64,000 nucleotides of DNA from Alloascoidea hylecoeti (taxonomy: Eukaryota). The position numbers and the translations under genes were made by a program. The stretch covers positions 895,566-959,565 of the forward strand of contig BCKZ01000004.1 of NCBI GenBank assembly GCA_001600815.1, in the 5' to 3' direction. Of this stretch, positions 1,883 through 45,138 are shown in pieces (position 1 is the stretch's first letter; each line of letters begins with the position of its first letter). Below the pieces are notes generated by a model. The model saw nothing but the letters and a program-made list of their open reading frames with translations, was not told the origin of the DNA and did no database searches.

Positions 1883-3520
1883 TTAAGACCAAAGTAACTG
1901 TAAGTATTGCCATCCTTTTAATGGTGGGGGAACAACTGCAGGATATTTCGCAGCATCTTCGAACAATGATTTCAAATCAACTTCGGATGATGGTATGAAT
2001 TTAGATCGTTTAATGATCTTAGCTGCCAAATAGAGAACCGCAAAAATCACCGCAGTGAAGTATGAAGTGAAAAAGATTTGAAAGTTCCAATGTCCATGAA
2101 TGAAAACTCTGAAGCCAGCAGTAATGAAAATGATAAATGAAAATACGCCGGAGATCCAACCTGGCCATGCTCCTAAGTTTCTATAGTTAAACGGAAGATC
2201 AGTTTTAGAATATCCTTGTACCTTCATTGCACGATGTAAAGCAACATGGTTTGCTGAAATCAGCATCCATTGAATCAATAGTTTTGAAGAGGTCATACTT
2301 TGGAACCAATTAAATACATTAGCCGACTTTGAAGAGACTGACATATATGCTAACGGAATAAAAAGAGCTGAGAAGATAACACCAATGTAAGGTAACCCAA
2401 ATCTATTTGTTTTTAGAAAAATCTTAGGAGCCATTCCTTTTGCGGCTAAGGAAAACAAATTTCGAGAACCATCAAGCAATGAAAGATTGGCAGCAGACCA
2501 GGCTGAAGTTAACACAACAGCATTAATAATACTAGGGATCGCCTTAACTCCTGCTCTCTGGAAAGCGATAACGAAGGGGGAAGATGCGGCATTTCCTAAT
2601 CCAGTTGCAATTTTTTTGTCGTTATATGGGACAATGAGAGTCAAAATAAAAACTGTGAGACAGTAGAGAGAAACGGTTCTGTAAATAATTCTTTTAGCTG
2701 CAGTGGGGATTGTATGCCTTGGATTAGCTGTCTCTCCTGCTAGTAAGGCAATTGACTGAACTCCACCATATGAATAAACGGCAGATGTTAACACACTCCA
2801 GAACCCCAAGAACTTCCCGAGATTACCAGGTTTTAAATACTCTGCAAATGGACCGGGATCTCTCCAATAATGGAATCCTAATCTCTCTTGTCCCTTAACA
2901 CCACCTAAATCGATACAAAGACCGCCGATAATGAGTCCAACAATTAAAGAAATTTTGAGTAAAGCAAAAAAAAATTCAAGTTCTCCATAGAATCTGATAC
3001 TAATACAATTACTAAGAACAATTGGTGTGGCAGCAACGGTAATCCAAACAGCAGGGCTAATATCAGTCCAATAAGAAATAATAACTGGAACAGCCGCAAT
3101 CTCTGTTGGCAAGAGACTTGAGTAAATTGTTAAGTAACCATAAGCAGCACCCAATGCAGGGTCCAGAAAATGCTCAGAATGTCTAACCGTGGAACCAGTA
3201 ACTGGCATCAAACTTGCGGTTTCAGCCATACTAATTTGATTGAATGAAACTAAAGCTCCGACAATAATGTAAGATAAGAGGATACCTACTGGACCTGCTT
3301 TTGCAAGAGATCCACCGGAAGATAAAAATAATCCTGTACCAAAGACACCAACTAATGATATCATTTGAACGTGTCTTTGGTTAAGACCCGTCACCAATCT
3401 CTTTCTATCTTCTGAAAAAATGCCGACCTCCTCTTCAGTGTCTAATGAGACTACATCTTGTATTCCAATGTTTTTTTCCTCATCAGTTGAACCGATATAC
3501 CCTACTTTGTTATCACTCAT
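1883..3520 (-). CDS. Amino-acid permease (APC/YAT family), paralog 1
   Basis: 545 aa, ~12 hydrophobic segments, GLNQRHVQMISLVGVFGTGLF, YGELEF, GFHYWRDPGPF and AGET motifs. Confidence 0.93.
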   Translation of the reverse strand: MSDNKVGYIGSTDEEKNIGIQDVVSLDTEEEVGIFSEDRKRLVTGLNQRHVQMISLVGVFGTGLFLSSGGSLAKAGPVGILLSYIIVGALVSFNQISMAETASLMPVTGSTVRHSEHFLDPALGAAYGYLTIYSSLLPTEIAAVPVIISYWTDISPAVWITVAATPIVLSNCISIRFYGELEFFFALLKISLIVGLIIGGLCIDLGGVKGQERLGFHYWRDPGPFAEYLKPGNLGKFLGFWSVLTSAVYSYGGVQSIALLAGETANPRHTIPTAAKRIIYRTVSLYCLTVFILTLIVPYNDKKIATGLGNAASSPFVIAFQRAGVKAIPSIINAVVLTSAWSAANLSLLDGSRNLFSLAAKGMAPKIFLKTNRFGLPYIGVIFSALFIPLAYMSVSSKSANVFNWFQSMTSSKLLIQWMLISANHVALHRAMKVQGYSKTDLPFNYRNLGAWPGWISGVFSFIIFITAGFRVFIHGHWNFQIFFTSYFTAVIFAVLYLAAKIIKRSKFIPSSEVDLKSLFEDAAKYPAVVPPPLKGWQYLQLLWS

Positions 3521-3654
3521 GTTTAGAACTAGTTAACAGAAAGCTTAAACCAACAAATTAATAGACAGATCACCACCTTTTATATTATTTTCGTTATAAA
3601 AGTAAATCAATAAAACAAATCAAAAAGTCTGAAATGTAATATTAAAGTTTTAAT

Positions 3655-6235: not shown

Positions 6236-7909
6236 TTATGACCATAATAAATTAATATACTGCCATTTCTTCATTGGAGGAGGAATGATAGCTGGGTTCT
6301 TTTCAGCATCCTCGAATAATGTTTTCAAATCAACATCAGATGAACGCACAAATTTAGTCTTCTTAAAAATCTTCCAGCCTAAATATAAAACCCCAAATAA
6401 TACAAGAGTGAAATAGGATGAAAAGAATGTTTCAAAATTCCAAAATCCGTGAATAAACACTTTAAATCCAGCAGTAATAAAAATAAGGAATGAAGCGATA
6501 CCTGAAATCCATCCAGGTAAAGGACCCAGTTTATAATTGAAAGGGAGATCCTTCTTACTGTATCCTTGAACTTTTAAAGCTCTGTGTAATGCAACATGGT
6601 TTGCTGCAATCAACATCCACTGAATCAATAGTTTTGAGGATGTCATATTTTGAAACCAATTAAATACATTAGCCGACTTTGAAGAGACTGACATATATGC
6701 TAACGGAATAAAAAAAGCTGAGAAGATAACACCAATGTAAGGTAACCCAAATTTATTTGTTTTTAGAAAAATCTTAGGAGCTAATCCTTTTGCGGCCAAA
6801 GAAAATAGATTTCTGGAGCCTTCAAGCAATGAAAGATTGGCAGCAGACCAGGCTGAAGTTAACACAACAGCATTAATAATACTAGGGACCGCCTTAACTC
6901 CTGCTCTCTGGAAAGCGATAACGAAAGGAGAAGATGCGGCATTTCCTGATCCAGTTGCAATTTTTTTGTCGTTATATGGGACAATGAGAGTCAAAACAAA
7001 AACAGTCAATAGATAAAGTGCGACAACTCTGTATATAACTCTTTTAGCTGCAACAGGAATGTTATATCTTGCGTTGGAAGTTTCTCCTGCTAATAGAGCA
7101 ATTGTTTGAACACCACCAAAAGAATACACAGTTGAAGTCAATACACCCCAGAAACCTAAGAATTTTCCCAACGATCCTGTTTTTATATACTCTGCGAAAG
7201 GACCCGGATCTCTCCAATAATGGAATCCTAATCTCTCTTGCCCTTTGACACCGCCTAAATCAATGCAAAGTCCACCAATAATGAGCCCAATAATCAGAGC
7301 TATTTTAAGTAATGCAAATACAAATTCGATCTCTCCATAAAATCTGACACTAATACAATTACTAACAACAATTGGTACGGCAGCAACCGTGATCCATACT
7401 GCAGGACTAATATCAGACCAATATGAAATAAGAACGGGAACCGCTGTAATTTCTGTAGGAATAATAGAACTATAAACAGATAGATATCCATAAGCAAATC
7501 CGAAAGCAGGATCCAAGAAAAATTCAGAATGTCGAACAGTAGCACCAGTCACAGGCATCAATGCTGCGGTTTCGGCAATACCAATTTGGTTCAGAGAAAC
7601 AATAACGGCAATTATAACAAACGATAAAAGCATACCAACTGGCCCAGCTTTTGCCAACGTACCACCAGAAGATACAAATAAACCAGTACCAAACACACCG
7701 ACCAATGAAATCATTTGAATATGTCGCTGTCCTAGCCCTTTTGATAACCTTACTTTGTCTTCATTGAAAACACTCGTTTCAGTAGTGTCATCAGAAATCG
7801 TCCGTCGAAGTTCGATGCCTACATTCTTTTCTTCATCAGAAATGTCATGATCTGATATCGAATCCTTCGTTCCTAAATTATAGCTTGTTTTATTTGTTTT
7901 GTCCGTCAT
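6236..7909 (-). CDS. Amino-acid permease (APC/YAT family), paralog 2
   Basis: 557 aa, colinear with and highly similar to 1883-3520 (GLGQRHIQMISLVGVFGTGLF, GFHYWRDPGPF). Confidence 0.93.
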   Translation of the reverse strand: MTDKTNKTSYNLGTKDSISDHDISDEEKNVGIELRRTISDDTTETSVFNEDKVRLSKGLGQRHIQMISLVGVFGTGLFVSSGGTLAKAGPVGMLLSFVIIAVIVSLNQIGIAETAALMPVTGATVRHSEFFLDPAFGFAYGYLSVYSSIIPTEITAVPVLISYWSDISPAVWITVAAVPIVVSNCISVRFYGEIEFVFALLKIALIIGLIIGGLCIDLGGVKGQERLGFHYWRDPGPFAEYIKTGSLGKFLGFWGVLTSTVYSFGGVQTIALLAGETSNARYNIPVAAKRVIYRVVALYLLTVFVLTLIVPYNDKKIATGSGNAASSPFVIAFQRAGVKAVPSIINAVVLTSAWSAANLSLLEGSRNLFSLAAKGLAPKIFLKTNKFGLPYIGVIFSAFFIPLAYMSVSSKSANVFNWFQNMTSSKLLIQWMLIAANHVALHRALKVQGYSKKDLPFNYKLGPLPGWISGIASFLIFITAGFKVFIHGFWNFETFFSSYFTLVLFGVLYLGWKIFKKTKFVRSSDVDLKTLFEDAEKNPAIIPPPMKKWQYINLLWS

Positions 7910-10365: not shown

Positions 10366-11422
10366 TTAAAACTTGAAGACTTGATTCTTGGTATAGCCTA
10401 GGTCCTTTAAAGCACCAGAAAGTTCACCTTGATCGGAGGGACTAGCTTTTTCTCCCGAGAAGGCCTTACAAAACCCAGGTGGTCCACAGACAAAAGCCTT
10501 AATATTATCAGAAGAGGACTTTGGAATTGTTTTAGCCAAAAAGTCTTTAGTAATTATACCTGTGTTACCTGACCAATCAGAAGTCGGTTTGTCAACAAAA
10601 TAATGAACTTTAAACTGATCTGGAAATTTTGAAGTTAGTACATCTAGTTGTTTCTTCAAAATAATATCATTAGGTGATAGGTTTCCATAAATAAGAGTAA
10701 CCTTGGTTTTATCGGCTGGATTTTTAGTAATTTCTTGAACCAATTGGTATAGTGGAGTAATTCCCGTACCGGCTCCTAATAATGCAATTTCCTTATGTTT
10801 ATTAGCTTCCCATTTATATTTCAAAATTGGACCTTTGACAGCCAGCTTATCACCTTTCTTTAGATCGAAGATATGAGTTGACATGGCACCCCCATCGTAT
10901 TTCTTTATTATGAAATTTAAACTTCCCTTACTGTCTGGGTCGGATACTGGTGTATATGGCCTTATCACTGGTTTTCCATTTGAGCCAATGAATTTTGTTA
11001 AAACACACGAAGCTACTTCAAGACCTGCAGTTTGGTCTTGCGATGGAAATTCAAATGTAAAGAGTTTCGACTGTTATTTATTTTGTTAGATAAATCAGAG
11101 TTTCTTTTTTCATGATTAATTGATATTTTAACTAATAAGTTAGTAAATTTGATGCTACATACATTATGAGTAACGTCTTCAATTTTAGCGAGCTATAAAT
11201 TCAAGCGGTTAATAAATGTTATGAAATTAATAATTATAATTAACAAATTAGATCGATATCGATGCTTACTTTTAAATCAACAAATTCTCCTTGAAAAACA
11301 GGTGATAGTGCAGCTGCAGGACGACGATACTGGTGATAAATTACAGCCGAAGCAAAACCAGCACCAATTGCAATTGGAATAAGTCTTTTTTGTGCTAATC
11401 CTAAAATTTCTCTACTTGCCAT
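10366..11422 (-). CDS. MCR1: NADH-cytochrome b5 reductase, Mcr1 type with N-terminal anchor; 3 exons (11422-11270, 11192-11163, 11070-10366)
   Basis: RPYTPVS, GTGITP, CGPPGF and C-terminal QVFKF motifs; GTAAGC..TAG and GTATGT..CAG introns join the exons in frame; hydrophobic IPIAIGAGFASAVIY segment. Confidence 0.88.
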
Positions 11423-11817: not shown

Positions 11818-12774
11818 TCAAAACTTGAAAACTTGGTCTTTAGTGTAACCCAGTTCCTTCAAAGTACCAGTAAGTTCACCCTGATCAGTTGGACTAATCT
11901 TAGGTCCTGAAAGAGCCTTGTAAAATCCGGGTGGACCGCATACAAATACTTTAACGTTTTCTGCAGATGGCAAAGGTATGTTTTGTTCCAAGAAGTCTTT
12001 TGAAATATAACCTGTATTTCCTTTCCAAGTTTCATCTGGTTTATCAACAAAAAAATGAACTTTGAATTGATCGGCATGATTCTCTGCCAATGCCTCCAAT
12101 TCTTTCTTAAGAATAATACCATCTGGAGTTAAATTTCCATAGATTAAAGTGATCTTAGTCTTATCTTCGGGATTAGCAATGATTGTATGAATCAGTTGAT
12201 AAAGAGGAGTAATACCAGTACCGCCTCCTAGCAATGTAATTTCATTATGTTTATTAGCCTCCCATTTATATTTCAGGATTGGTCCCTTAATAGATAATGA
12301 TTCTCCAACTTTTAAGTCAAAAATGTGAGACGAGACAACTCCTCCTTCATACTTTTTAATGATGAATTCAAGCTTTCCTTTGGTAGCAGTGTCAGAAACA
12401 GGTGTATATGGTTTGGCTGCAATTTCACCGTTGGGTTTGGTGAATCTTACAAACAGTGCTGATGCAACGTGAAGGCCTGATGTTTGTTCAGGTGATGGAA
12501 AATCAAAGGTAAAGTGTTTGACCTAAATACCAGAAGTTAGTTTCAGTTCAAGAATTGACATTATCGTATATCTACATCTACTTACATTATGTGAAAGTGA
12601 TTCAATTTTAGATAGCTAGTAATAGTTAGTACAACCAATAGCAATATTAATACCAATGTTCCTAGAATATCTAAGAAAACATACCTTTAAGTCCACAAAG
12701 TCTCCCTTAAAAACAGGCTCAATCGATGGTGATGCAGTCGACATTGCTCTTAAAAAATGTTTTAGTCTGTTCAT
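11818..12774 (-). CDS. MCR1: Second MCR1-like NADH-cytochrome b5 reductase lacking the TM anchor; 3 exons (12774-12685, 12615-12586, 12522-11818)
   Basis: MNRLKHFLRAMSTASPSIEPVFKGDFVDLK|LSKIESLSHN|VKHFTFDFP...KPYTPVS...GGGTGITP...CGPPGF...QVFKF; same intron positions as the neighbouring paralog. Confidence 0.85.
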
Positions 12775-27901: not shown

Positions 27902-29272
27902 ATGATCCAACCTACTCAGTCTGCCTCCTCGGAATTCAACACTTATTCCCCTCCTCCTAGCTTCTCAATGATATCCGAAGACTCTTCCACCTCTTCTGCT
28001 TCCTTCATAGGTCACGATGCCATCTCCGTCAAAATCAAAAATAATGATCCCATGTTCGCGTTAGGTATTGCAAAATCAGCTTCTTCGCAGAATCTAAAGT
28101 TCCCACATGCAAAATCAGTTCTACACAACGATGCCATTTTAACTCCACCGCCGGAGATAAATGTCGTTGACACTCTCAATATGGAGCCTATTACCGTAGA
28201 GCTGGATCTGACTGATCATGAAAAATCTATTTTGAGAGAAACATGGCAATATTTAATGGATGATACCTATGTAAACGATGTTGGTTCAGCTGCTGCTGGT
28301 TCTACTGGTGCTAAAGTAATAAAGCACCCAAAACGGCCTGATATGATAAGAATTACAATGAATAATGCTTCAAGTGGAATCGCTTCAACTATTTTCTGTA
28401 GGCAGTTTTATGGTACTCTTTTATCAACTGCTCCATATCTAGAGGAAATGTTCCCATCTATTCGCCATCAAGCTGTTGCATTTGCTGGGGTTCTCGCTAC
28501 TGCAATTACCCAGTTAGACCATATTGATATCTTGGCTGATTATCTCACATCTCTTGCGAAGAGGCATTCACGAATATTGAATATTGAACCTGTCCATTTC
28601 GATTTAATGGGTCAAGCCTTCATACAGACTCTTAGTGACAGATTTCAGCATGATTTCACTCTTGAATTAGAGGATGCCTGGGTAAAATTATATTCATATC
28701 TGGCTAATAAGTTATTGCAAGACGGTATTGATCCTATTGTTCCTCATTTATTATATAAAATGCCATCGCAAACAAGTCTAAATGATTCTAGCTCGGAAAG
28801 TGATATAAAATCAAATACTTTAGATAGAGTATCTACGGTATTATCATCACCTGAGAAATTGAATTCAACAAGTTCTAGAGCTTCATTGCATGGTGGTAAT
28901 AAAGGTTCACAGTCTAAAAAATCATTAACAAGGCTAATATCAAATTATAAATCATCAGCTAGATCATCAACTAGATTTTCAAGATTTTCAAGGAATAGTA
29001 AAACATTTGATACTGATGCAAATACTACCGACCCTGCTTCTGGAGAACTATTAATACGCACTCTATCGGTTGAATCTGAAAGGTCTGATCAGGATTCGAT
29101 CATTTCATCGGCTACTCAAAATAGTAGGAATCATTTGTCCAAATTTAAAATGCGCCCATCAATGCCAAGGTTGGATGAAGAATTCAAAACTAATTATAAC
29201 CCCTCAAGAGCTTATGGAAGTTCAATGATCAGAACTAATCATGCTCAAGACGGTGAGTGTGTTATTGCATAG
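27902..29272 (+). CDS. Globin-domain protein with Ser-rich flanks and a C-terminal CaaX (YNL234W-like)
   Basis: LRETWQ...FCRQFYGTLLSTAPYLEEMFPSIRHQAVAFAGVL...LAKRHSRILNIEPVHFDLMGQAF...AWVKLY globin helices; ends CVIA*; first ATG at 27902. Confidence 0.8.
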   Translation: MIQPTQSASSEFNTYSPPPSFSMISEDSSTSSASFIGHDAISVKIKNNDPMFALGIAKSASSQNLKFPHAKSVLHNDAILTPPPEINVVDTLNMEPITVELDLTDHEKSILRETWQYLMDDTYVNDVGSAAAGSTGAKVIKHPKRPDMIRITMNNASSGIASTIFCRQFYGTLLSTAPYLEEMFPSIRHQAVAFAGVLATAITQLDHIDILADYLTSLAKRHSRILNIEPVHFDLMGQAFIQTLSDRFQHDFTLELEDAWVKLYSYLANKLLQDGIDPIVPHLLYKMPSQTSLNDSSSESDIKSNTLDRVSTVLSSPEKLNSTSSRASLHGGNKGSQSKKSLTRLISNYKSSARSSTRFSRFSRNSKTFDTDANTTDPASGELLIRTLSVESERSDQDSIISSATQNSRNHLSKFKMRPSMPRLDEEFKTNYNPSRAYGSSMIRTNHAQDGECVIA

Positions 29273-30566: not shown

Positions 30567-32096
30567 TTAATTTTTAAAACAAGAGCCCATAACAATATTG
30601 AGTTGATCATTAGTAAACCTGAGTGGTGGTTCATGTTCAATACCGAAAGAGAGAGGCAGCAACGAAGCCTCATCTGGATATAAATTGTGAGCTATTAATT
30701 GTTTGTAAAAAGTAGGACTAATATATTCAGCCCTTCCATCTTGTCGAACAATCCATGTTGCAACGGATTTTATGTTACCTTCAGTATGGTTTGTATAGTA
30801 TACTGACGTCTTTCTTTTTAAAAAGTCAATCAAAATCAAAAATTGCATGGGGACGCCAGTTACTTCATACATAGCAAGAACAAACCTTTGACAGGGTGAA
30901 ATAGTAGATTTAATCACCGATACATTTGGAGGAAAGTTCAAATCTGAAAATGTCATGTATTTGTACCACTTGGCCTTAACAATCTGTCCCCTACGCTCCA
31001 AAGTTTCAGTTGATTTAAGCCATACTCCATCATTACTGAATAGAAAAAGATGATTTCGAGTACTCTGTAATTTGAATGTTGTCAATTTACCCCCTTTAAA
31101 AAGATTCAAATCTTGAGGCAAATTAAAACCATTAATTAAATCATGTTTCCCCTTTGTGAGATGTTTGCAAATAAAATTTGGCTCGTGTTTACGTAAACTA
31201 GTTTGTAAGCGCTTTTTATGATCAAGTGAGAATGCAATAAATGATGAATCAAAGTGAGGTCGAAAACCCTTATGCGATTGGAGCATGTCTATTTCCACTT
31301 TAACTGACAAATCCTCTACCAAATAAACTGATCTTTTATCTGATCCAAATATTGTGTATGTATCCTCCGTAGATTCAATTATTGGGTGCTGAAATATCCT
31401 GTTAGGAATAAGTTTCCATAAATCTTTGGTAAGTAAGTTTAATGATTCATTTTGGTTATAATAATTGTACATCTTGTGCTCTTCAAATGATAATTTGTCA
31501 GTTTCAGGCATTTCAATCATTGCCTCATGTATTATTCGAGGATCATATACGCAGAATGATGGGTGTTCCCCGGCTCCATAAAAACACTGTATTTTCTCCA
31601 AAAAAGGAAGGAAATCTCTCGGCGGTTCACTACCAGTGAAATCCGTATAATTGTGACATTCTAAACGATCATTACACATAAACATCTCCGACACTTTTTG
31701 TAATCCAATATAACCTCTAACTCCCGATGGCATTTGTATACATTTGATGTATTGTTGGTTTTGAAACCAATTCATTTCGCGAAGATGAGATAAATGAGCT
31801 TCTGTCTCCCAATAATTATGTGGGGCATTAAACCGCATAGATTGTTGATACGCAATGGCTTCATGTAGACTTTTGGCTTTAATAAATGTAGGCGCTTCTA
31901 CCATTCCCTTTTCAAGAGTTTTTGTTTCAGCATCATATTGTATTATTTTTAAAGCGCTATAATTCTCACGGGTATTTAAAGGTTTATCATAAAAATCAAT
32001 TAGATCAGGAACTCTCAGTGTTCTGTTAGCAATTCTAAGAGCAGAGTATTCTTGTTGCATTTCATGAAATGCTGGCTGGATTGAGATAGTTGACAT
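30567..32096 (-). CDS. Orphan 509-aa intronless protein; C-terminal half beta-strand rich
   Basis: Long uninterrupted ORF in AT-rich DNA with ATG in acaATG context; no family recognised. Confidence 0.7.
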   Translation of the reverse strand: MSTISIQPAFHEMQQEYSALRIANRTLRVPDLIDFYDKPLNTRENYSALKIIQYDAETKTLEKGMVEAPTFIKAKSLHEAIAYQQSMRFNAPHNYWETEAHLSHLREMNWFQNQQYIKCIQMPSGVRGYIGLQKVSEMFMCNDRLECHNYTDFTGSEPPRDFLPFLEKIQCFYGAGEHPSFCVYDPRIIHEAMIEMPETDKLSFEEHKMYNYYNQNESLNLLTKDLWKLIPNRIFQHPIIESTEDTYTIFGSDKRSVYLVEDLSVKVEIDMLQSHKGFRPHFDSSFIAFSLDHKKRLQTSLRKHEPNFICKHLTKGKHDLINGFNLPQDLNLFKGGKLTTFKLQSTRNHLFLFSNDGVWLKSTETLERRGQIVKAKWYKYMTFSDLNFPPNVSVIKSTISPCQRFVLAMYEVTGVPMQFLILIDFLKRKTSVYYTNHTEGNIKSVATWIVRQDGRAEYISPTFYKQLIAHNLYPDEASLLPLSFGIEHEPPLRFTNDQLNIVMGSCFKN

Positions 32097-34343: not shown

Positions 34344-34889
34344 ATGTCAAGACTCCGAAAAGCCTCAAGAAGAATATTTACTATTGATGATCATGATTCT
34401 GATTTGTACTCATCGGTTGAAGATTTTCCATTAGATGAGCAAGAACAAGAAGAATTGATCCATCGGCTAAGATCAGATAATGAACAAAACAACGAATTTT
34501 TTAAAATTGCTTTTATTACAATATTTTTATTGCCATCCCCTGTATTGATTACTTTACCTTATTGTCGACGCAATCCAATTGCAAGTCTATTCTCACTGCT
34601 TTCATTAATAGCTTCAAGTTATTCTATTTATTTTGATAATGATAGTTTGGGAAACGAGCAGTCCAGGAAAAACAAAACCAAGATATTAAAATTTTCAAAC
34701 TTGGGAGTGGCGTTAACCATTTTGATTGCAAAGTTATTCGAACATTGGCCATGGAAAGGTTATGATTATATTTGGTGCTTACCTTTAATTTCATCCTTAA
34801 CTTCGATTTTTATATCCCATTTAATGCATGATTCAGACGATGTTATTCACGATCTTAATAATTTGAAATACAAATACAAAGGAGCGTAA
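34344..34889 (+). CDS. Conserved small multi-pass membrane protein (YGR016W-like)
   Basis: 181 aa, PLDEQEQEELI motif, four hydrophobic segments, C-terminal KYKYKGA (KxKxx-like); synteny with EAT1. Confidence 0.7.
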   Translation: MSRLRKASRRIFTIDDHDSDLYSSVEDFPLDEQEQEELIHRLRSDNEQNNEFFKIAFITIFLLPSPVLITLPYCRRNPIASLFSLLSLIASSYSIYFDNDSLGNEQSRKNKTKILKFSNLGVALTILIAKLFEHWPWKGYDYIWCLPLISSLTSIFISHLMHDSDDVIHDLNNLKYKYKGA

Positions 34890-34985: not shown

Positions 34986-36569
34986 TTAGTCAGATCTTTC
35001 ACAATGCAGTTCATCATTATCAATCACATTCTCAAGATCTAGTACATCCTCTGAAGAAATATCAACATTACATAACATATCATCATTAATATTAATACTA
35101 CCACCCTCAAGAACATCCTCTGACGAAATATCAATATTACATAAGGTATCATCATTATTATTCATACTGCCACCTTCAAGAACATTCTCTGAAGAAATCT
35201 GAACATTATACAATGTATCATCATTCTGAGAATCAAACACAGATTCCTTATAATTATTAGAATCATCATCTTCATTAGAAAAGAAAAGTTCTTTATTGTC
35301 ATTATTCAACAATAATTCTGTATTACAAATACTTCCAAAATGTGCAAGGTTTAATGTTTTCTCGGTATTATATCCATTTTTCTTTATTTTATTCATCAGA
35401 TATCTCTTTCTTTCTGGATTTTGTGCTATTTGTTTTAAACGCTCCATAGAGGGGAAATGCTTTTTAGAAACCGAAACAAAATTGAAAAATAAAAGGGGAT
35501 TCTAAAACAAAAATGGTAATTAATATTTGAATTTCTTGAAAGGGTATAACATATAAAATAAATTAGACGCACATTGTTATCATTGGTATTATCACCATAT
35601 TGCTTTAAGATACTCGATATCGTTGGAATGTATGGATATGAAAATTCAAACCTCTATCAACAAAATTGTAAGAATTATATCTTTTGTAACGAAATATCTC
35701 AATATTTTTCTTACCCGTCTTGCTTCGAAAGAGAAAACTAATGGCATTAATTGTTCAAATTTATTCAAAATCAGAGATCCAAAAGCTTTATTTATTAAAC
35801 TCGCAGTGCTCAGTAATAAATCCCTTTTATAATACTTTTCTGTTTTCTTAATATCAAACAATAAATCCACTGTAAGTTTATTAAGACTTAGAATATGTTG
35901 TTTTAAATCTAAATTTGCACCTTCTGTAACTTTGATACGTTTTTTATCATGGGGTAGTGCTACTTCTTGTGATTCCAATAAAGAGTCTAGTTTGGTATCA
36001 CTGATTAAATGACATATTAGCATAACTAAACGATATTAATGTTAGTATCCTATAACCATTTCTCTAAACAATCTTGGAGTCTCATGAGTCTTCTTGCCTT
36101 TGAAAGAATAAGCATTTTGAGTCCCTAGTTTTAAGCTTGCTTCATATCCTAAATCTTCCCAAAACTAAATCAATAAGTACACCGGTCAATTAGTATAATT
36201 TCTGACCTCTATCTCGTTATAGTTATGAACTTTATGTGAGATCAAAAAACTAACCTGTCCTTTCTGTATTAAATGCCCTAATATTTCGAATATGTCGTTA
36301 TAATCATTACAGTCTGCATTCTTCCAATGTATTTTGAATATAATCTATAAAGGTTTGCTTAATATGAAGCATATAAGTTTAATAGTTATTTCTCGTACCT
36401 CAAAATGTGGCAATTTAGGAATAATCGTACTATCATTCAATAGAGGCGTAATTCCAGGTGAAGACGGTGTTTTATCATCTTCTTTATATCTTGATAATTC
36501 TAAATTAAAAGTTGAATGTAAACATAAACGAGAATCTTGAATTATTATAGGATCCATGGACACCTTCAT
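34986..36569 (-). CDS. REC102: REC102-like meiotic DSB protein (Spo11 partner, TopoVIB-like); 6 exons (36569-36399, 36344-36255, 36164-36098, 36025-35715, 35653-35573, 35501-34986)
   Basis: Spliced product IIPKLP..FWEDLGY..LICHLISD..FGSLILNKFEQLMPLVFSFEARR|RF parallels recalled S. cerevisiae Rec102 (YIPLLP..FWEEQLFY..LKCTILTD..FSSLIVSQLEFEYPMVFSMISRLRL); lies near NMA1 as YLR329W does to YLR328W; all five introns keep the frame. Confidence 0.72.
35043..35225 (-). repeat. 69-bp coding tandem repeat x~2.7 (NDDTLxNxxISSExVLEGGS)
   Basis: Units at 35043, 35112 and 35181, period 69. Confidence 0.85.
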
Positions 36570-36740: not shown

Positions 36741-37277
36741 ATGACATTATCAGATCCACAGCTTAAAATACAAATAACACATATCTATCGAAAGCTATTT
36801 AAACTCAGAAATGCAGTTACAAGTAAAAATGCTGCCAGGAAAACTTATATAAGCCTTCTTCGATCTAGATTTGAAAAGGATGATTATAATGAACGAAGAC
36901 AATATATACTTAAACAAAATCCAACAGAAAATGAATTAACAAATGAACAAATTTTTAAGTCAATTGAAAACACTTTACATTTTATTGAAAGATCAACGAT
37001 TTCAATAAATACAAAGTTCAATAAATCAAAACCAACAACTGAAAGTAGAATTTTAAAAAATATTTTATTTGTAGAATGGAATAGATATGAAAGCGTTAAA
37101 AAGTCAAAATTTACGAATCTTTATTCAAAAAATTATATTTCTGAAGCTGAAGATGTAATGGAATCAATTAAAAATGGAAAAAAACCTGACAAAAATTTAA
37201 GTGCTAATTTAATTGCATTTAAAGATTATGAATATGCATTAATGATGTTTAATGAAACAATGAATTTACGGTTGTAA
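36741..37277 (+). CDS. Basic mitochondrial protein, IRC19/DUF1763-like
   Basis: 178 aa; IYRKLFKL, TYISLLRSRFEKDDYNERR and C-terminal FNETMNLRL resemble the family as recalled. Confidence 0.55.
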   Translation: MTLSDPQLKIQITHIYRKLFKLRNAVTSKNAARKTYISLLRSRFEKDDYNERRQYILKQNPTENELTNEQIFKSIENTLHFIERSTISINTKFNKSKPTTESRILKNILFVEWNRYESVKKSKFTNLYSKNYISEAEDVMESIKNGKKPDKNLSANLIAFKDYEYALMMFNETMNLRL

Positions 37278-38799: not shown

Positions 38800-39825
38800 A
38801 TGAGTTTTCAAACACAACAAAGCGAATACAGTGAACATCCAGATGCTGTTCAGTTTCCAATTCCCACAAATTCAGTCCACAATCGAAGGTCAATCCCACC
38901 TGGACTATCCGATTCCGGCTCGGAGTCGGGCTCACTGGAGACGGCGCCGGACGGTATACAGGACATCACTAGAGTGGTAGGTCACACGGCGGATCTCGAA
39001 GAAGTCCCACATGGAATTTCAAGGCAATCAAAAACATTAGAAGGTTATAAGTTTCCTACTCATAGATTAGCAAAGTTTTTGTATGATGATACAAAGTATC
39101 CGCTGGTCATTGTGGCGTGCGGATCATTTTCACCAATTACCTATTTACATTTACGGATGTTTGAAATGGCTCTTGATGCCATTCGTGAAAGTACACAGTT
39201 TGAAGTAATTGGTGGATATTATTCTCCAGTATCTGATAATTATAAGAAAGCAGGGTTGGCTCCTTCATTTCACCGGGTACGAATGTGCGAATTAGCTTGC
39301 GAAAGAACGAGTAGTTGGTTAATGGTCGATGCTTGGGAATCTTTACAGCCTCAATATACTCGAACGGCACTCGTTTTAGATCACTTTAACAATGAGATAA
39401 ATGTTAAAAGAGGTGGTGTTAAAACGACATCAGGAGTCCAAAAAAGTGTTAAAATCATGCTTTTAGCCGGTGGAGATTTGATAGAATCGATGGGTGAGCC
39501 TAATGTTTGGGCAGATGCTGATCTACATCATATTCTAGGTGTTTACGGGTGTCTCATTGTTGAAAGAACTGGCTCTGATGTTCGAAGCTTTTTATTATCA
39601 CACGATATCATGTATGAACACAGAAAAAATATTCTAGCAATCACACAACTGATCTATAATGATATTTCTTCAACCAAGGTTAGACTATTCATTCGACGAG
39701 GGATGTCTGTTCAGTATTTGTTACCGAATAGCGTTATTCGTTACATTCAAGAGCATGGACTATATATTGGGGAAACAGAACCTGTTAAACTAGTGCTAAG
39801 TTCTAAAGATCAACCACGATTTTGA
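38800..39825 (+). CDS. NMA1: Nicotinamide/nicotinate mononucleotide adenylyltransferase
   Basis: GSFSPITYLHLRMFE, SSWLMVDAWES, ISSTKVRLF motifs. Confidence 0.95.
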   Translation: MSFQTQQSEYSEHPDAVQFPIPTNSVHNRRSIPPGLSDSGSESGSLETAPDGIQDITRVVGHTADLEEVPHGISRQSKTLEGYKFPTHRLAKFLYDDTKYPLVIVACGSFSPITYLHLRMFEMALDAIRESTQFEVIGGYYSPVSDNYKKAGLAPSFHRVRMCELACERTSSWLMVDAWESLQPQYTRTALVLDHFNNEINVKRGGVKTTSGVQKSVKIMLLAGGDLIESMGEPNVWADADLHHILGVYGCLIVERTGSDVRSFLLSHDIMYEHRKNILAITQLIYNDISSTKVRLFIRRGMSVQYLLPNSVIRYIQEHGLYIGETEPVKLVLSSKDQPRF

Positions 39826-43509: not shown

Positions 43510-45138
43510 TCAGTGAAATTTGTCAAAGTCTATCTGAACAGGTGAGAGACCCAAACCTCCTTCAACAAGCAGGTCGTAGTTGGTATCTTCTTCTTGCTTG
43601 ACGGCTACTATAGCTGAGGGGCTAGAAGAGGCGGCAGGGATGTCGTTCAATGGGGAAATATTCCCGGCATCTGCGGCTGTAAGCAAGTCATTTTCCCGAT
43701 CTGTATATTTATGTATGGGTGGCTGTTCTGAATTCAAGTCTTCCCGTAATCCAGAACTGTTGTAATTGTAATTATGATCATGTTCTGGATCATATGTAAA
43801 CTCTTCATTGCTCCCATTATTCTGTTGCACGTCATGTATAACATTATTTGTTGCATATCCATCCTCAACATCGGGTAAAATCGTACTGAAATTATGTTCA
43901 TTCGCCTTGCCAATCTCATTATGGGGATTGTTAGCTAATGCCACATCGTAATAGGTAAATCCAGACATAATAGACCTTTCTAGCATCATTGACCGTTCTT
44001 TCTCCTCTTGTAGTTCTGTTATAACAGTTGAAAGTTGTTGTTCTAAATTTTCAACGCGTTTCCTTAGTTCACGCGACTCATCCTCATGATCATGGTCACT
44101 GGCTATATCACTAACCGTTTTCGATTTCTTCTTTGAAACAAGAGTTGCTGAAGAACTTGAAGTCATTGAAGATTTATTGACATTACGCGTCTCTAATTCG
44201 TTTGATGTTTCAAGATTTGTTTTTTTGACCTTATGCCTATATTTTTTATCTTTTTCTTTTTTTGAACCCAATTGTTGCGAACGCGTATTAGACTTTTTCT
44301 TGTTCATATCATTTTCTGATTTATGTTCTTTCTCATTGCCTTTAAAAATGTTAATTGTGTTATCCTCCTCCTTTATTTCCAAATCCTTTACTTGAGCATC
44401 TGCATCAGATACCAAACTTCCTTTCGAGAACTTCATGTAAATTTCTGCTCGCGTTTTATTAACATCATTAGTATTTAACTTTGCATGCCCCAATTGTTTG
44501 AGCTCAGCATTATTTTCCATTCCAAACTCATCTTCTTTATTAGAAGTAATCCCATCTACAAATGACCTCCATAATGTACTTGTTAAGCTTGATCCTTGTT
44601 GTTTTTTATTAATATTATTATCTGTTTTATTAGTTTCGCTATAACTTTTGCTTTTTTGGACCATAGGCACGTTCACTTTGGGTTTAGTTATCCTTCGTTT
44701 CTTACCAGAAGCTGTGATCTCCACATATTCTTTTTCCGACAGGTCGCGTTTTCTGGGCCTTTCTAATGGCGTTATGAAAAAACCAGGAAATGAACCGGGC
44801 ATCTTCAATGATGATTTAATAGTGGATGGACCGGACTTTCTATTTAATTTAAATGGAATATGTGGTATTGTGGTTGAATTCTTCTTGTTTACAATCGTTT
44901 TCGAATTTCGTAGGAACATTAGTTGATTATTCACAGGTTCATTTGAGCTTAAACTATGCTTAGGCTCGATCTTGTTATGTTTATTACCGAATTTATCCGC
45001 TGTTTGTGATTTCGATCTTTCTGCTTTGAAACTTTTGTGATCCCTAGATCTAGACGAACTGCTTGGTGAGGCTGAAGTAGCATCAACTGCCTCTTTCCAA
45101 GCGTCTTTAACACCGGATACTAAATCCGACCAAACCAT
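43510..45138 (-). CDS. NBP1: Nbp1/YPR174C-like spindle-pole-body or nuclear-envelope coiled-coil protein
   Basis: N-terminal amphipathic-looking MVWSDLVSGVKDAWKEAV, KKRR NLS-like motif, coiled coil ELRKRVENLEQQLSTVITELQ, C-terminal LSPVQIDFDKF; same position and orientation as YPR174C next to DPB2. Confidence 0.55.
   Translation of the reverse strand: MVWSDLVSGVKDAWKEAVDATSASPSSSSRSRDHKSFKAERSKSQTADKFGNKHNKIEPKHSLSSNEPVNNQLMFLRNSKTIVNKKNSTTIPHIPFKLNRKSGPSTIKSSLKMPGSFPGFFITPLERPRKRDLSEKEYVEITASGKKRRITKPKVNVPMVQKSKSYSETNKTDNNINKKQQGSSLTSTLWRSFVDGITSNKEDEFGMENNAELKQLGHAKLNTNDVNKTRAEIYMKFSKGSLVSDADAQVKDLEIKEEDNTINIFKGNEKEHKSENDMNKKKSNTRSQQLGSKKEKDKKYRHKVKKTNLETSNELETRNVNKSSMTSSSSATLVSKKKSKTVSDIASDHDHEDESRELRKRVENLEQQLSTVITELQEEKERSMMLERSIMSGFTYYDVALANNPHNEIGKANEHNFSTILPDVEDGYATNNVIHDVQQNNGSNEEFTYDPEHDHNYNYNSSGLREDLNSEQPPIHKYTDRENDLLTAADAGNISPLNDIPAASSSPSAIVAVKQEEDTNYDLLVEGGLGLSPVQIDFDKFH

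Follow-up and report, generated by a model that had tools for sequence, protein, structure and literature searches.

The list of open reading frames for positions 34986 to 36569 of our window (the whole 64,000-nucleotide stretch of DNA analysed here) holds nothing but fragments of 74, 125 and 153 aa, and the locus raises the question of whether these belong to one split gene and, if so, whether that gene is REC102, as a sequence-only reading had proposed. Our answer is that five introns, within the coordinates given by that reading, join six exons into one 411-aa open frame, and that the gene is very probably the only REC102 orthologue in the genome of a budding yeast that is rich in introns, reads CUG as Leu and falls outside the S. 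cerevisiae NMA1/NMA2 cluster.

Results

A split reading frame with five candidate introns

Read on the minus strand from ATG 36569 to the stop at 34986, the candidate gene gives a spliced open frame of 411 aa from six exons and five introns (54, 90, 72, 61 and 71 nt). Four introns are GT-AG and one is GC-AG, all five acceptors being TAG. There is no stop or frameshift inside any exon, five of the six exons share one reading frame and the DNA of the locus occurs only once in the 24.8-Mb genome. In window positions, with ranks from the junction test described below, the parts of the gene are:

36399..36569, minus: exon 1 with the start codon (36569), aa 1-57; weak match to the Rec102 N-terminal strands
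36345..36398, minus: intron 1, 54 nt, GT-AG, phase 0; rank 1/9; no branch motif by the pattern used
36255..36344, minus: exon 2, aa 58-87; strand D and the following helix by alignment
36165..36254, minus: intron 2, 90 nt, donor GTTAGT, branch TACTAAT; rank 1/7
36098..36164, minus: exon 3, aa 88-109; opens with a FWED motif, the equivalent of Rec102 W91 (the Trp of WKxY)
36026..36097, minus: intron 3, 72 nt, GC-AG, phase 1, branch TACTAAC; rank 1/7
35715..36025, minus: exon 4, aa 110-213; carries strands E and C, the switch-loop region and a stalk that has a PLVF kink motif
35654..35714, minus: intron 4, 61 nt, donor GTAAGA; rank 1/12 by a wide margin; weaker branch motif
35573..35653, minus: exon 5, aa 214-240; provides the counterparts of the Spo11-interface residues R199, W202 (Phe) and L214
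35502..35572, minus: intron 5, 71 nt, donor GTGCGT (weak) and branch motif TATTAAT; rank 1/14; the least secure junction
34986..35501, minus: exon 6, aa 241-411; about 50 basic and hydrophobic residues, then an acidic tail
35044..35225, minus: 2.6 tandem copies, within the tail, of a 69-nt (23-aa) unit, with 85% matches

An alternative genetic code was ruled out, as all three stop codons (TAA, TAG and TGA) occur among the interruptions and these lie within inserts that look like introns. CUG reads as Leu, aligning with Leu in NMA1 in 44/49 and 36/49 matches.

Resemblance to Rec102

As reference we took S. cerevisiae REC102 from the metagenome NMA1 loci L005 and L006, and with this gene as starting point six Saccharomyces-group proteins were obtained; its exon 2 matches chain B of PDB 8URU/8URQ. 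Exon 4 alone reaches the Pfam REC102 profile (PF21736) with 29.1 bits (E 9.1e-7) at a gathering cut-off of 27, and reading through the in-frame introns gives 31.6-32.8 bits and extends the match over exon 3. This compares with 177 bits for S. cerevisiae REC102 exon 2, against 29-33 here; the match covers profile positions 43-154 of 197 only and exon 4 has some 20 residues more than the profile. The profile exceeds its cut-off at one place only in the genome. Together with the first rank of the modelled introns at five of five junctions, this HMMER/Pfam result bears out the REC102 identity that the sequence-only reading had suggested.

Globally aligned to S. cerevisiae Rec102, the spliced model scores z = 8.2 (300 shuffles), and hhalign against a shallow Rec102 alignment gives a score of 35.7 with 49% probability, the maximum of 40 shuffles being 18.8. 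Used as a tblastn query, the spliced model matched only the REC102 frames of L005/L006 (E 0.25) among the loci then compared. Model residues ~30-229 are collinear with Rec102, identity to the S. cerevisiae protein being about 24% over 177 aligned columns, and residues 187-229 align with S. cerevisiae 172-214 without gaps (15/43 identical, including P189, V191, F192, R197, R199 and L214). W89 in FWED aligns with W91 of the WKxY motif and the kinked stalk, which reads EYPMVF in Rec102 (10.1101/2021.09.30.462231), keeps P, V and F here, with M replaced by L and with E and Y differing. In Rec102, R199 has been described as essential for recombination and Spo11 binding, and W202, L207 and L214 as further parts of the interface (PMC11746154); R199, W202, L207 and L214 correspond to R214, F217, I222 and L229 within our ungapped block. 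Since the R199 equivalent and the block downstream of it come only from exon 5, they support intron 4.

The earlier claim that the motifs follow the order of S. cerevisiae Rec102 thus stands only up to about residue 214: for the second hairpin helix and the C-terminal extension (220-264, with D231, S233 and Q239) no significant similarity was seen in exon 6, which has no Pfam match either. Among single-query searches, S. cerevisiae Rec102 found nothing in this genome, phmmer with exon 4 or the read-through did not retrieve 8URU/8URQ, exon 4, the read-through and exon 6 had no significant match among PDB sequences and no relatives emerged from protein searches that used exon 4 or the read-through. 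A DUF4957 repeat protein, which came up in the full HMMER search along with the window's own ORF, was rejected as spurious. So was a Rec102-Rec104 fusion, which found no PF17378 or PDB support. In the ESM Atlas exon 4 had no usable match, and a query with S. cerevisiae Rec102 itself did not lead to a Rec102 cluster either. Folded alone, exon 4 is predicted as three helices (pLDDT 56) and, with two homologues, as strands plus a long helix (pLDDT 34); fold searches with these predictions, confined to exon 4, returned noise and no meaningful matches.

Junction tests and codon use

The five-intron model had first been chosen by eye and with an expectation of Rec102 motifs. Each of its junctions was tested with the other four introns fixed, by substituting each possible GT/GC-AG intron of 40-140 nt that leaves an open frame (9, 7, 7, 12 and 14 alternatives at junctions 1-5) and aligning the candidates to four Rec102 sequences. 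In alignment to Saccharomyces Rec102 the modelled intron scored highest at 5/5 junctions, by 2, 3, 2.5, 14 and 3.5 score points for introns 1-5. With flat signals a spliced aligner recovered intron 4 and no other, by homology alone; with splice weights, which were set by hand after the introns had been seen, it recovered introns 2, 3 and 4 plus the donor of intron 1, and differed from the model in another intron 1 acceptor, an additional intron within exon 4 and a different last intron. The spliced-alignment score at REC102 (81.8) compares with a mean of 41.8 (sd 7.9, maximum 62.0) over 69 other strand-stretches of the window.

A codon model trained on 40 AT-rich ORFs finds exons 1 (LLR +12.8), 3, 4 and 6 (+14.5 and +32.3) coding-like and exon 5 neutral, while exon 2 is non-coding-like (LLR -8.6) and so counts against our model; reading on through intron 5 is non-coding-like as well (LLR -19.1 over 45 codons). 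Piecewise similarity to Rec102 is weak for exon 1 (21/1000 shuffles score higher) and for exons 1 and 2 together (15/1000 shuffles), not significant for exon 2 alone (453/1000 shuffles score higher) and not significant for exons 5 and 6. Neither exon 6 nor the read-on frame has significant local similarity to the Rec102 C-terminus.

For comparison we used 21 other meiotic introns of the genome (DMC1, SPO11, PCH2 and one of REC114), several of them placed by eye, with the frame checked to be open. These measure 56-112 nt (median 71) and have varied donors and loose branch sites, and the REC102 introns fit in size. AAG acceptors occur in 7/21. The donors GTTAGT (also in PCH2) and GTAAGA recur in this set, from which the other three REC102 donors (GTACGA, GCAAGA, GTGCGT) and any further GC donor are absent. 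Three unrelated metatranscriptome runs yielded one 40-nt piece, which lies outside the REC102 gene.

Intron 5 has a GC content of 0.23, a branch motif and a T-rich acceptor, and we consider it quite probably real, if less surely so than the other junctions because exon 6 carries no significant likeness to Rec102. Taken as a whole, the exact five-intron model appears likely.

Alternative gene structures and identities

If REC102 had only four introns, translation would continue across the intron 5 stretch and end at 35435, the 153-aa ORF from 35447 would be separate or spurious and the acidic tail would not be part of Rec102. That frame is indeed open, its 285 aa come near the S. cerevisiae length, local tests score it much like the five-intron form (HMM 16.7 vs 15.2 bits, local 77 vs 77) and both the unusual GTGCGT donor and the lack of significant likeness between exon 6 and the Rec102 C-terminus speak for it. 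Its global score, however, is 38 vs 56 for five introns, its read-on codons fare far worse than the two parts of exon 6, the base composition, branch motif and acceptor of intron 5 are those of an intron and a separate gene would have to begin 13 nt inside the end of the first one; we regard such a form as unlikely. Changes further upstream, whether they move junctions of the 5' half or put one more in-frame intron (35938-35870) into exon 4, are fairly unlikely. The margins at junctions 1-3 are just 2-3 score points, the spliced aligner favoured acceptor 36321 together with the extra intron, exon 4 exceeds the Pfam profile and AAG acceptors are common in this genome, yet the modelled introns come first at every junction and the stretch that the extra intron would remove is coding-like in codon use (+9.4) and aligned with strand C.

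Doubts about the nature of the gene, as opposed to its borders, weigh less. It is very unlikely that an unrelated gene matches PF21736 by chance through one amphipathic helix: although exon 4 lies just 2 bits above the cut-off and pairwise BLASTP to Rec102 spans 25 residues, the matches are collinear across separate exons, the modelled introns take first rank at five junctions and the gene sits near NMA1. A REC102 pseudogene in decay, in which stops could pass for introns 1-3 given that 5/6 exons share one frame and in which the donors are weak, strikes us as extremely unlikely, for the interruptions are 54-90-nt insertions with donor, branch and acceptor signals rather than point lesions, the exons are free of stops and shifts, this is the only REC102 copy and open frames are found in SPO11 and in the other meiotic genes that were checked.

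Linkage to NMA1

Three neighbours frame the gene:

34344..34889, plus: convergent ORF of 181 aa, without significant Pfam match; its stop and that of REC102 are 96 bp apart
36741..37277, plus: divergent 178-aa ORF; no Pfam match; 171 bp between its start codon and that of REC102
38800..39825, plus: NMA1-like NMN adenylyltransferase gene; PF01467; 80% identity to L005/L006

The name NMA1 was taken from likeness to the gene that precedes REC102 in L006, where S. cerevisiae REC102 lies directly downstream of NMA1 on the same strand. In our window REC102 lies upstream of the NMA1-like gene and on the opposite strand, with one ORF (36741-37277) between them, so the linkage is kept and the order is not; the synteny noted earlier amounts to proximity, order and strand being rearranged. 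None of the other S. cerevisiae neighbours that were scanned has a counterpart in the window's long ORFs. In 11 other yeast-like loci (72/133 ORFs scanned, flanks up to 8 kb) the NMA genes had no REC102 next to them, and a six-frame profile search over 13,998 frames gave none apart from L005/L006. In an NMA1 tree the window falls among yeast-like rows and outside the S. cerevisiae cluster, its placement in the tree being unresolved. Intron 1 is of phase 0, as is the single intron of S. cerevisiae REC102, and lies two codons away from it in the best alignment; an exactly shared intron was dropped from consideration, as the two coincide only with a two-residue gap.

Elsewhere in the window we observed ORFs of 509 and 542 aa without significant Pfam match (30567-32096 and 43510-45138, minus), a tandem pair of amino-acid permeases (1883-3532 and 6236-7909, minus), a tandem pair of FAD/NAD-binding oxidoreductases (10366-11073 and 11818-12522, minus) and a protein of 456 aa in which long Ser-rich stretches flank a central globin domain (27902-29272, plus).

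Meiotic genes elsewhere in the genome

Reading gene names from Pfam matches, we found SPO11, DMC1, HOP1, REC114, MND1, MER3, SPO22, PCH2 and six MutS loci, so the meiotic machinery that had been predicted for this species is present, REC102 itself adding little to the case beyond the easily found SPO11 and DMC1. SPO11 (G000:C29, ~140.6-141.9 kb) is intact (335 aa, 4 introns) and has YY and QRQLFF motifs, which we take to be the catalytic and the Ski8-type motif, respectively. The Rec114 PH domain is encoded at G000:C18, ~455.8-456.4 kb. PCH2 is intact too (548 aa, 5 introns; donors include GTTTGT, GTTAGT and GTATAA) and stands head to head with SPO11 (L096 3886 minus and 3965 plus; G000:C29, ~141.9 kb). 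Because just 78 bp separate their start codons, the two probably share one very short promoter. DMC1 (L087 707-2513; G000:C4, ~749.0-750.8 kb) contains 11 introns, and spliced alignment to its paralogue RAD51 defined ten of these; six of the 11 have AAG acceptors, and RAD51 has an uninterrupted frame of 291 codons. Meiotic genes look especially intron-rich in this genome. DMC1, MND1 and REC102 all lie on contig C4 within 190 kb, and SPO22 and HOP1 are ~12 kb apart on G000:C10 (444.5 kb and 456.3 kb).

Searches run without a positive control found neither REC104 (PF17378) nor MER2 in the genome; Rec104 is described as detectable only in Saccharomycetaceae (PMC11746154). The URS1 core was absent from the promoters checked, in which set the MER3 stretch was misplaced.

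A Mer1-type motif in the last intron

One further element lies inside intron 5:

35540..35547, minus: putative Mer1 enhancer at +26 of intron 5, an exact sequence match to the consensus AYACCCUY

In S. cerevisiae the Mer1/Nam8 regulon is reported to comprise AMA1, MER2, MER3 and SPO22, and the enhancer to lie ~25 nt downstream of a non-consensus donor (PMC3082912). Intron 5 resembles this arrangement in having the non-consensus donor GTGCGT and an exact enhancer ~25 nt on, and differs in that S. cerevisiae REC102 is not a target. The last intron of PCH2 (L096 5784-5859, plus) has the exact motif at +26 too, but a consensus donor. At this position the motif thus occurs in 2/26 introns vs 0.036 expected or, counting the independent case alone, in 1/21 (P 0.03). 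Genome-wide the combination of donor and enhancer shows no excess, with 88 matches vs 162 in a reversed control, and several matches sit by housekeeping genes. Six of the 88 belong to a dispersed repeat (L123, L143, L146, L182, L188 and L197) with a near-identical 29-31-nt start, probably the end of a mobile element. No exact AYACCCUY occurs in the 9 kb with MER3 or in the 4.2 kb of SPO22, whose 3' end may lie outside. MER1, which has been reported beyond Saccharomycetaceae (PMC8567612), was not found: 17 KH matches fall in six genes, none of them, by our reading, single-KH and Mer1-like, though a split, diverged KH domain could escape such a search. We consider regulated splicing of intron 5 quite unlikely.

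Discussion

Comparison with S. cerevisiae Rec102 (YLR329W; PF21736; chain B of 8URU/8URQ) reveals a predicted transducer-only protein with the conserved Trp, PxVF, R199 and L214 in common, encoded near NMA1 and with an intron at about the same place and in the same phase. It also brings out differences: five introns rather than one, 411 aa rather than 264, an insertion before strand C and a gene that lies upstream of NMA1 on the opposite strand instead of following it on the same strand, in a genome where no Rec104 was found. By analogy with the cryo-EM structure (PMC11746154), the protein would act as a transducer-only Top6B-like subunit that binds Spo11's winged-helix domain and supports break formation.

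The sequence-only reading had further seen in the gene a missing link toward Rec6/TOPOVIBL, and here we disagree. Mouse TOPOVIBL and archaeal TopoVIB have a transducer domain binding Spo11/Top6A (PMC9665070, PMC11746154), as predicted for our protein, but there is no GHKL or GHKL-like domain in the latter. Nor is there room for one upstream, with 171 bp to the divergent gene and a lone upstream ATG that opens a frame of 16 codons, and PF15091 (TOPOVIBL) gave no match in a search without positive control. Loss of GHKL has already been described for S. cerevisiae and S. pombe (PMC9665070). Moreover, REC102 has been named in two Ogataea species (PMC6692504), and Rec102/Top6BL homologues have been reported from S. 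macrospora by BLAST and from N. crassa by modelling (PMC11746154), so that the family was already known outside Saccharomycetaceae. The S. macrospora homologue, too, had been hidden by a mis-annotated splice site (PMC11746154). REC102 is scored as present in all 21 species of Table S3 in PMC8567612. PMC12642689 and PMC12203943 contributed nothing specific to the REC102 question. A literature search that reached few subscription journals found no paper on a five-intron REC102; yeasts of this lineage may also appear in the supplements or figure alignments that belong to PMC11746154 and PMC9665070.

The C-terminal tail is absent from the 264-aa S. cerevisiae Rec102. It comprises ~120-121 aa of acidic, low-complexity sequence (26% D+E, 2.5% K+R), and our guess is that it is disordered and specific to this lineage, an extension that is neutral or else serves as a docking arm. 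Mouse TOPOVIBL also has a disordered C-terminal domain after its transducer, which binds REC114 and for this purpose requires W562 (PMC9671922); exon 6 of our gene has no Trp. A bolder scenario would make the last intron a meiotic switch that, through its weak donor and Mer1-type enhancer (found at +26 in the last PCH2 intron too), adds the Spo11-binding C-terminus and the tail in meiosis only, with the tail replacing Rec104, for which this lineage gave no match, or the TOPOVIBL C-terminal domain in cis for Rec114 recruitment. We think it quite unlikely but, if it were true, it would suggest that Rec104, whose origin has been called unclear (PMC11746154), goes back to a C-terminal arm, or took the place of one, and not to the GHKL domain.

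To our minds, and going by its sequence, the gene is a very diverged addition to the known Rec102 family with an unusual acidic repeat tail. Finding it repairs an annotation gap, as the gene escapes single-sequence searches and looks like three unrelated pieces when ORFs alone are viewed, and leaves knowledge of how meiotic breaks are made unchanged; it would matter more if the tail stood in for Rec104. For the family it means that the linkage of REC102 to NMA1, and probably one of its introns, are old.
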